Origin: Schmidtea polychroa
Lineage: Eukaryota
Reading direction: 5' to 3'
Assembly: GCA_044892525.1 (NCBI GenBank)
Contig: CM097888.1
Location: 52,762,001 to 52,826,000, forward strand
DNA length: 64,000 bases
Position numbers and translations under genes: made by a program. Under the pieces are notes generated by a model. That model did no database searches. It had not been told where the DNA came from and saw nothing but the letters and a program-made list of their open reading frames with translations. How positions within the stretch are numbered: position 1 is the first letter of the stretch; each line of letters opens with the position of its first letter. Shown piece after piece: positions 17,102-20,100 of the stretch.

Positions 17102-20100
17102 CTGAAATGAAAATTAAATAACTAAATTCCCGTCAAATATGTCATATTTAAAGTAAATTGTAAGCAACACAGGCTTAAGTCATGATCATTGTGTTATAAT
17201 GTGACCTAAGAAAAGTGAAAATTAAAGATGAATGTAAGGCAATTGTAATGTGAGATTGAATGCTATTTTTTGTAACATTTTATAATGATTGTTATAATTA
17301 ATCTTGAATGCCTGGGTCCTCAGATTTTATCATTGTCTACAATTTAGCCCAAAGATACATGCCCTATGTATATGTATGTATATTGTATTGCATGTGTATT
17401 TTTATTATTTTTTAATTTTGATAATATTTGGAAATTATTGTTTGTCGAATGATAAATTCAAAATTCAAAATCAAATAATTGAAAAAGAAAAAACTAAGCA
17501 ACACAAAATAAATCAACTAGAAGAAATAAGGAAATTAAAAGCTGAAAATTAAACAATCCAATTTTAAAATTATCCTAAAACGCAGCAAATCCAAGAAATA
17601 GTAAAAATTCTTAATATCTAAATTCACGAAAAAAGGAAAGCCAAGTTATCCACAGGTTCAAGAAATATTAAATCAACGAGATCAAGTGTTTATAGATTAA
17701 AGTGTTTATTGTTTAATCAAACATTATATTACTCGTTATCAAGCAATTAAGGACAAATAAAGGTTTTTTGGTTTAAATTAAACGAATAAAATAGTTTATA
17801 ATCCTATTGTTGTTAATTTGTTTTTAATCCTTTTTTTGTATTCTACACAGGCACCCCAGCCGTCCCAAAACAGATTTTAAAGGAGACTCTGCTGGGCTCT
17901 TATAATCTCTTAGTATACACCTACAACTGATTAAAACATATAAATATAAAAAAATCGTACACTGATAGCCTGTATTTCTTGTTTTTTGAAATGGAAACAG
18001 TTTAAAACATTAAATACATCAGTTCAGTTGAAATAATTTATGGAAGAAAATTTTGCAAAAACAATTTTACAATTGCTCCAGAAAATATCAGTAAAAAGAA
18101 TCAAGAAGAAATGAAATATTAAATAATATCATATCAGTTACTGATACAAATAAATATTATCAAGAAGAGAGAACTCATTGACACTGAAAGATCTATGAAT
18201 TCGCACTTCTTGATAATATTTATTTGTATTTATTTGTCCTTAGAATATTAAAACTAAAAAATTAAATTAATTAGTTAAAATGTTGACTTGACTTATTTTC
18301 CCGCCATACAATCTCAAAGTCTCAAATCTAGTGGAAGTTTAGCACTAGTTATCCTCTTCACGTTCTAATGCTAATGAACCAGTAAAATATATATCTCACG
18401 CATTTTATGTGAAACTAGTCCGTAACTAAACAACTTACATTTAAAAAAATGTCTGTAAACATTTGAATGGAATGAATTACAAAAAATTTCAAGGTCGCGA
18501 ATGATTTGTACTATTTGTACAATATTAAAGGCTTTACAAGGAAAATTAACAAACTCATTCTCCTCTTATTTCCTTATAAAATTGTGCTGATATGTTGTCA
18601 ATGTAATAAATTATTGGAAAAAGTTTCCTTATTTCAAAATCCATTTTATGTAAATGTTGAAGAAATAAACAAAGATTTACGGACTAAAATATTCAATCTA
18701 GAAAGAAATGATAAATTTCCCAAGAACGTTGAATAGAAATATTTTGCTGAAATTAAGAATTGACAAAAAAAATAATTTCTGTAATAAATGTCAAATGTTA
18801 GATTTTTTTATATTCTTTCTTTTTACCAACTACTCTGCCAATCGCTAACGATTTTTGCGTGTAGTCCTTTCCCAAAAATGTTTGTGACCCCCTATTCTAC
18901 ATAAAGTGAATTAAGTAAAATCAATTTAATAATTTTAATTGAAAATCGCCATTCGTACATCTTTTTCACTATATATTTCGATAGCATCACTATCATCAGG
19001 CTACCTACAGTCATTAGGGATGGATAACTATAGTTATCCATCCCTAGTAACTGTAGGTAGCCTGATGATGATAGTGATGCTATCGAAATATATAGTGAAA
19101 AAGATGTACGAATTGCGATTTTTATTAATAAAGTCTTTGCTGAGTTTATTTAAGTATCTATTTAAAATTTTTATTTTATTTAAATTTTCTTTTAAAAAGT
19201 TTTCATATTTTTTGTTTTTATGCACTTTTATCAATAATTATCAAGGTCATTTTAAATATTATTATTTAAAAAATTAAACAAATATGATTTTTAAAAAAAC
19301 ATTTTTCGATTGCATTTTCCTATAGTTTCGAGATGGCTTGCATTAGAGTTGTTACCAAAAAAACAGACAGAGATTTATAATGGGGAAATTAAATATATTA
19401 AGAAGCCATATTATTGTATATAAAGAATTCCTTCTTTCATCCTGTCAAGACAAAAATTTTAGAAAAATATTCACGTCAAACTTCAAAACCAGCCTAAAAT
19501 GAAAATCTTTGATACAAAATTTCGGCCTTTCCCCGAAAATTATATCTTCTTTCTTCATGATTGTCGTCAACACTTTTTGATAAATTCGCTCAACTTTGAA
19601 AGCGCTGTGCTTGGTGTCTATTAGTTCCTCCATCGAACGAAAAGTAATCCCTTTATTTATGAAAGTTGTTTATATAATGTTTATATAATTATTGATAATG
19701 TTTATATAATTATTGATAATGTTTATATAATTATTGATAATATTTATATAATTATTGATAATATTTATATAATTATTAATAATATCTGTGTGTGTGTGTG
19801 TGGAATTAAGGTAATTTTCAATGTGTTACACCGAAATATAAAATGAGTTTTTGAATAATGGGCAAATGTTGTTGTTCATTCACTTTACAATTTAGGTGGG
19901 AATTTTAGGATAAATTCATTTATTAGTTATACGTTGATTAATTTTGAACTTATTTTCTCCAAAATAATTAATGACATTGATATATTTCCTTTATAATATT
20001 CCTATTACATACCAGCTAACAAGACTTAATAAATTAAAAAACCCAAATAATCAAAAATTGAGTTAGTTGAAAGAGAACCAAATAAAATTAATAAAATAAA

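Follow-up and report, generated by a model that had tools for sequence, protein, structure and literature searches.

A loop-less palindrome in an intron of Schmidtea polychroa consists of two head-to-head Penelope-like 3' ends sharing a native TATA

In a stretch of 64,000 nucleotides from Schmidtea polychroa (the window), we found a palindrome that consists of two 5'-truncated 3' ends (pLTRs) of a Penelope-like element (PLE), which lie head to head and overlap in a TATA native to the element. One arm has a longer 3' end than the other, and in a further copy within the window the repeat is connected to a GIY-YIG endonuclease. We consider it probable that the join was made from uncleaved RNA and that the ribozyme of the element is a type I hammerhead with a predicted cut at 19094/19095. 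Head-to-head structures are known, and the palindrome is an ordinary product of Penelope insertion. As the likely ribozyme cut lies about 64 bases from the join, the join is probably no record of ribozyme cleavage.

Results and Discussion

Structure and position of the palindrome

The palindrome and its axis at 19030/19031 had been described in an initial annotation of this DNA, and both were reproduced. In self-alignment, positions 18942-19122 match their own reverse complement with 93.5% identity over 184 nt, giving a mirror-image sequence of about 180 bases, and an axis test found 16 exact pairs flanking the axis. One (TA)n tract excepted, this is the longest loop-less core of the 64-kb window, the others having at most 9 pairs. 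The centre reads GGATAAC-TATA-GTTATCC. The left arm (18942-19030, minus strand), as delimited by self-alignment, is an inverted, 5'-truncated pLTR copy with a shorter 3' end and no tail, while the right arm (19031-19122, plus strand) is a pLTR copy with an intact hammerhead core. The self-complementary TATA at 19029-19032 is common to both arms, as seen from the axis test, and is native element sequence, as seen from two further copies (copies 3 and 4, below). The right arm alone continues into 19123-19132 (plus strand), at least 10 nt beyond the symmetric part. This extension is also present in copy 3 (blastn of 19029-19132 against 51721-51620), which stops there at a run of N, and it likely represents the start of the PLE 'tail'.

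Each arm carries one hammerhead core, and both cores face away from the axis. The arms differ by three substitutions and a 3-nt indel. The latter affects the left-arm core (18976-18999, minus strand), where one TGA unit of CTGATGA-TGA-TAG is missing, in agreement with the earlier statement that the left-arm ribozyme has lost 3 nt of its core. Since this spoils the junction between core and helix II, the left-arm hammerhead is likely inactive. The three substitutions and one 3-nt slippage would have accumulated since the palindrome was formed. That the palindrome is an artefact of assembly or library preparation is highly improbable, because arms produced by a fold-back artefact would be identical.

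The host gene, on the minus strand, is an activin type II-like receptor gene. The palindrome occupies the intron that separates its penultimate kinase exon from the last one (approximately 16916-17080, minus strand). Among solved structures, this gene matches activin receptors 2A and 2B best, with type 1 close behind, and the previous assignment to an ACVR2 intron holds in this sense. As RNA, the palindrome is predicted to fold into a hairpin of about -138 kcal/mol on either strand, which supports the earlier suggestion of long double-stranded RNA; on this prediction, the formation of such RNA from the intron is possible. The only Rfam match, to MIR9666, was rejected as a hairpin look-alike (41.7 bits against a gathering score of 88). 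An exact 28-mer gave no matches in metagenomes, and among 120 loci found in viral contigs with a generic pattern for head-to-head cores, none had a long palindrome linking two cores. The same intron contains a second inverted repeat at 18144-18229 (81%, 86 nt), 700 nt from the palindrome, for which no family was found in the window.

Identity of the arms

The identity of the arms rests on copy 3 (51620-52332, minus strand). It comprises the broken end of a GIY-YIG endonuclease (52332-51982), an AT-rich 3' UTR, the TATA at 51721-51718 and a hammerhead at 51688-51662, whose core lies 295 nt past the endonuclease stop. The repeat portion (51721-51620, minus strand) is 89% identical to the palindrome repeat in blastn. 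Because copy 3 joins the repeat to the 3' UTR and the GIY-YIG frame, the palindrome arms are Penelope-like 3' ends, and copy 3 also fixes their orientation as head to head, with the cores pointing outward. Hence the earlier description of the palindrome as a Penelope hammerhead repeat in two inverted copies, meeting at the central TATA, was confirmed both by the core in each arm and by this link.

The endonuclease frame of copy 3 is broken by two stops. Translated with X at the stops (P0002), it matched Pfam GIY-YIG with an E value of 2.8e-4 and 21.6 bits, slightly under the cut-off of 22.6. Among 26 candidates, five proteins showed 57-70% identity to it, and two of these five have a reverse transcriptase, namely P0006 (DKG, RVT_1) and P0007 (RVT_1). 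Within the window, no reverse transcriptase of the palindrome's family was found among the 137 of 152 open reading frames scanned, and Rfam gave no hammerhead match at E<=1. Scans for related loci were confirmed in 9 of 36 cases in genome contigs and in 1 of 93 in metagenomes; in viral contigs, 0 of 83 and 0 of 8 were confirmed. The closest relative with DNA available is locus L121, with 54% protein identity.

Copy 4 (63343-63594, minus strand) contains the tip of the endonuclease, the 3' UTR and the native TATA-GTTATTCATC and ends at a run of N. In copies 3 and 4, the region corresponding to the junction reads CAATAT(A/T)G-TATA-GTTATTC, compared with GGATAAC-TATA-GTTATCC in the palindrome. 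Beyond this TATA, copy 3 continues for about 610 nt and copy 4 for about 230 nt in the 5' direction. The initial annotation had placed a ribozyme cut at 19032/19033 and had stated that all Penelope sequence upstream of it is absent. This does not apply, as the central TATA is native and lies 5' of the proposed cut.

Two smaller features belong to the same family. Within copy 3, a local inverted duplication (51897-51986) with a 40-nt fold-back at TTAATTAA, absent from copy 4, is located at an AT palindrome and is free of any ribozyme; we count it in favour of a join formed without cleavage. A 24-nt remnant, TAAC-TATA-GCTATTCATCCCTAAT (21746-21769, minus strand; blastn E 3e-4), lies 2.7 kb away from the palindrome. 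It has TAAC 5' of the TATA as in the palindrome, unlike the native sequence, and no core follows. The remnant may represent debris of the palindrome unit or a further junction formed at this TATA, and it is the strongest indication of a junction that recurs; the latter option has to be read against the 43 palindromic 4-mers that occur within the 295 nt upstream of the core. The idea that it is a whole palindrome after deletion was dropped as not significant, its score being equalled or exceeded in 9 of 1000 shuffles and in 1 of 377 pieces of the window.

Two topologies of the hammerhead

In the right arm, the hammerhead core (19062-19088, plus strand) is composed of CUGAUGA, an extra U, helix II (GAUAG/CUAUC) and GAAA, and an ATG at 19068 coincides with A9-U-G10.1. 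Listing all NUH sites as candidate cuts led to two readings. In the type I reading (19088-19096, plus strand), helix III is the palindromic ATATAT, the predicted cut is ATA^GT at 19094/19095 and helix I has 2 bp. In the type III reading (19030-19061, plus strand), the predicted cut is ATA^GTT at 19032/19033, helix I is formed by GTTATC/GGTAGC and helix III has 3 bp. The predicted cuts are 62 nt apart, the type I cut being 64 nt and the type III cut 2 nt from the palindrome axis. The cut proposed previously is thus recovered under type III pairing and lost under type I pairing.

According to several reviews, hammerhead motifs of PLEs are mostly of type I (PMC6765202, PMC6155905, bioRxiv 10.64898/2026.07.22.740005). 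Minimal type I hammerheads of metazoan PLEs have been described as pairs on opposite strands, 100-700 bp apart, with a helix I of usually 4-5 bp, and of 2 bp in Drosophila virilis Penelope (PMC4209133). The right arm and copy 3 share the hallmarks of this form, namely an extra nucleotide after A9, the G10.1-C11.1 pair, a palindromic helix III (ATAT in copy 3, ATATAT in the palindrome) and an AUA triplet, and they resemble it also in the short helix I and in the arrangement as opposite-strand pairs. The type I helix I ranges from 2 to 5 bp in related cores, and with 2 bp in 3 of 3 arms the palindrome family is at the bottom of this range; 2 bp are also found at loci L125 and L163. The type I form is predicted to give no fold as a monomer either, as expected of dimer-type motifs. 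We regard it as quite likely that the hammerhead of the palindrome family is of type I and cuts at 19094/19095.

What distinguishes the window family from the hammerheads of PMC4209133 is a 6-bp helix I partner upstream of the core, allowing a type III fold, which is not among the features given in the available text of that source. All type III elements are present by base pairing, namely a 6-bp helix I 5' of the core, an NUH site and a helix III of 3-4 bp. Helix I stays paired through both base changes among the copies and is retained in three arms, and a type III-like site arises by chance in about 1% of cases (68 of 5000 shuffles, 18 of 1958 window pieces). In the predicted folds of all three arms, the type III helix I has a pair probability of 0.00, and in the two intact copies the type III fold lies 9-10 kcal/mol above the optimum, which means no stable monomeric fold. 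In the literature searched, we found no type III motif in an animal PLE, nor a mapping of PLE junctions relative to the hammerhead cut. Since the descriptor used in the 2014 survey (PMC4209133) was of type I, a type III variant may have been overlooked or may be listed already.

At L121, the type I helix I has 3 bp, with U-A at the first pair where the palindrome family has G-C, and there is an A/A mismatch at the equivalent type III position. This locus (2228; 2312-2345) also has a 6-bp upstream partner, at a distance of 84 nt and with a helix III of 2 bp, where a GUA triplet overlaps the endonuclease stop codon.

The putative start codon can be compared with the biochemically tested Poseidon element PAc of Anolis, in which the ORF begins at helix II, 26 nt ahead of the cut (PMC11167929). 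Similar to PAc, the window family has an ATG at the start of helix II, a predicted type I cut 26-27 nt downstream (27 nt by our count) and a likely tail; whereas PAc was tested biochemically, the cut and an ORF start at this ATG are putative here and deduced from the letters. The 27-residue peptide encoded by the core had no clear match, by eye, at the N-termini of six longer relatives.

A second hammerhead family with a decayed type I look is present at 8085-8125 (plus strand) and 2469-2596, reading GCTCGAAAC-NNN-TC^T. The sequence at 2469-2596 is an inverted repeat of this family, the spacer of 24 nt spans the predicted cut, and neither break is at the cut. Near 2667, a (TAT)n tract is followed by a single CTGATGAG.

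Origin of the junction

The closest known counterparts are the Pen2, Pen2a and Pen3a elements of Adineta vaga, where inverted pLTRs, head-to-head junction palindromes, an arm overlap and a tail on one arm have been described (PMC3846280), and head-to-head pLTR junctions have been interpreted as self-priming, with a general scheme (PMC3846280, PMC8557442). The palindrome of the window shares the head-to-head pLTRs, the junction palindrome, the overlapping arms, the extension of one arm and the AT-rich site. It differs in that its arms are only about 90 nt long and overlap by 4 nt, against 15 bp in Pen2a, and that they enclose no ORF. The extension of at least 10 nt on its right arm compares with a tail of 30-40 bp at inverted pLTR junctions.

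Fold-back or template switching during reverse transcription, already proposed in the initial annotation, is the most likely origin of the join. Reverse transcription would have started near the 3' end of the pLTR on uncleaved RNA, passed the ribozyme and reached the first TATA upstream. There the new strand would have snapped back, or two strands primed from two target nicks would have annealed, and the self-complementary TATA would have served as a 4-nt joint. That the axis lies so near the alternative type III site would then be incidental, because both are tied to the same TATA.

It had also been suggested that the junction records a ribozyme cut. In that case, a type III hammerhead would cut at ATA^GTT, reverse transcription would run to the 5' end of the cleaved RNA and the cDNA would fold back, the TATA being untemplated or derived from the target. 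The retention of the 6-bp helix I in three arms against a chance of about 1%, the position of the axis 2 nt from the type III site and the remnant at 21746-21769, with a junction of the same type, speak for it. RNA cleaved at this site would lack the TATA, which lies 5' of the cut, so that the added bases must happen to match the four native nucleotides. Moreover, the type III helix I is not predicted to pair, a type III form does not appear among reported PLE motifs as far as our sources go, and both other sizeable copies in the window (2 of 2) cross the site, where breakpoints had been expected to cluster. For PAc, insertion did not need cleavage, and no RNA reads ending at the cut were reported (PMC11167929). 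Considering also the control copies described below, none of which start at the hammerhead cut, we think this origin unlikely.

A broader form of the same idea would be that the family rebuilt a type III hammerhead from an ancestral type I by means of the upstream TATA-GTTAT, that its cut defines the RNA 5' end about 35 nt before the start codon, and that junctions pile up there. We hold this to be improbable. If true, the genome itself would prove that the end of the template is set by a Penelope ribozyme, as in R2 elements, where an HDV-like ribozyme makes the RNA 5' end (PMC6765202). R2 shows what such a model would amount to, although the ribozyme class differs (HDV-like versus hammerhead). 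The role of Penelope hammerheads is considered unsettled (PMC8557442, PMC11167929), and two possible cut sites 62 nt apart bear on the switching of ribozyme topology and on the setting of RNA ends.

The family might also have gained a working type III hammerhead that played no part in the join, uncleaved RNA having been the template and the TATA of helix III the site. This would account for the 6-bp pairing and for the kept TATA alike. Competing hairpins dominate the predicted fold, helix III would consist of only 3-4 A-U or G-U pairs and the site is not kept at that position in L121, all of which make this reading unlikely.

Alternatively, the axis may mark the transcription start of an internal promoter of the pLTR, giving a fixed RNA 5' end that is not made by the ribozyme. 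The Penelope promoter is internal, with the start within the pLTR (PMC2377424), and initiation at T19031 or A19032 would account for the TA retained in each arm. The promoter of D. virilis has been described as TATA-less (PMC2377424), and we consider it quite unlikely that transcription initiation set the axis, even though 3 of 15 control pairs (see below) break 33-41 nt 5' of C3, a distance that would suit it.

A single insertion could, finally, have been duplicated in inverted form by a later template switch in replication or repair, with no part for reverse transcription. Three further short inverted repeats in the window fit with such events. The inverted arm, however, ends at the 3' end region of the element and carries no host flank, and a longer arm on one side is the rule among the control head-to-head pairs; a later duplication is therefore very unlikely.

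Junctions of other Penelope families

As a control, we used genome G001, reached through locus L126, which contains other Penelope families from another animal and was searched with patterns built for type I cores. The pattern gave 99 core matches, compared with 19 for the reversed pattern. Every opposite-strand pair of the same family on one contig was taken (n=15), and pairs with unlike cores were left out. All 15 pairs are head to head. Their inverted arms break 6-788 nt 5' of C3, which corresponds to 37-820 nt 5' of the cut (15 of 15), and in five of the 15 pairs the break is at most 41 nt from C3. For the pair C716, the value of about 200 comes from a separate analysis, as the walk halted at an indel.

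The sole loop-less case among the 15 is L142, a palindrome of 261 bp whose centre is 1 nt. The distance between its axis and C3 is 33 nt, compared with 31 nt in the window palindrome, and L142 has a type I helix I of 5 bp with the cut 68 nt off the axis. The same geometry is thus found where the cut is located downstream, which, together with the copies 3 and 4 that run on 5' of the site, speaks against reading the junction as a trace of the ribozyme.

Because the pair search requires an intact core, it is blind to junctions at the type I cut. A second search, in three families, therefore used the sequence immediately downstream of the cut as query. None of 38 matches starts at the cut. They represent 31 insertions, seven of them pairs, and the shortest keeps 24 nt upstream of the cut. 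This argues against the view that the template is usually a cleaved RNA. An upstream type III-like site equal to that of the palindrome family was found in none of 32 control core contexts, one family having a site with 5+3 bp. Since the control consists of other families and type I patterns, it bounds the general claim and is no test of the palindrome's own family.

G001 (L123-L128, L131-L210) is filed as bacterial, and many of its contigs are rich in Penelope elements of animal type, whose hammerheads are of type I and often have a U3-A8 variant of the core. These contigs are likely eukaryotic contamination and provide a convenient collection of head-to-head junctions.

Other features of the window

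Exons of an amino acid transporter are found at 1883-9593 (plus strand), and 10704-12944 (plus strand) is an intact frame of 746 codons with no Pfam match that looks transposase-like by eye. Pieces of LTR retrotransposons lie at 405-1617 and 58881-60427 (both minus strand) and include a Gag with a zinc knuckle as well as reverse transcriptase, RNase H and integrase. Exons of an EF-hand calcium-sensor-like gene (48449-50786, minus strand) follow shortly after copy 3.
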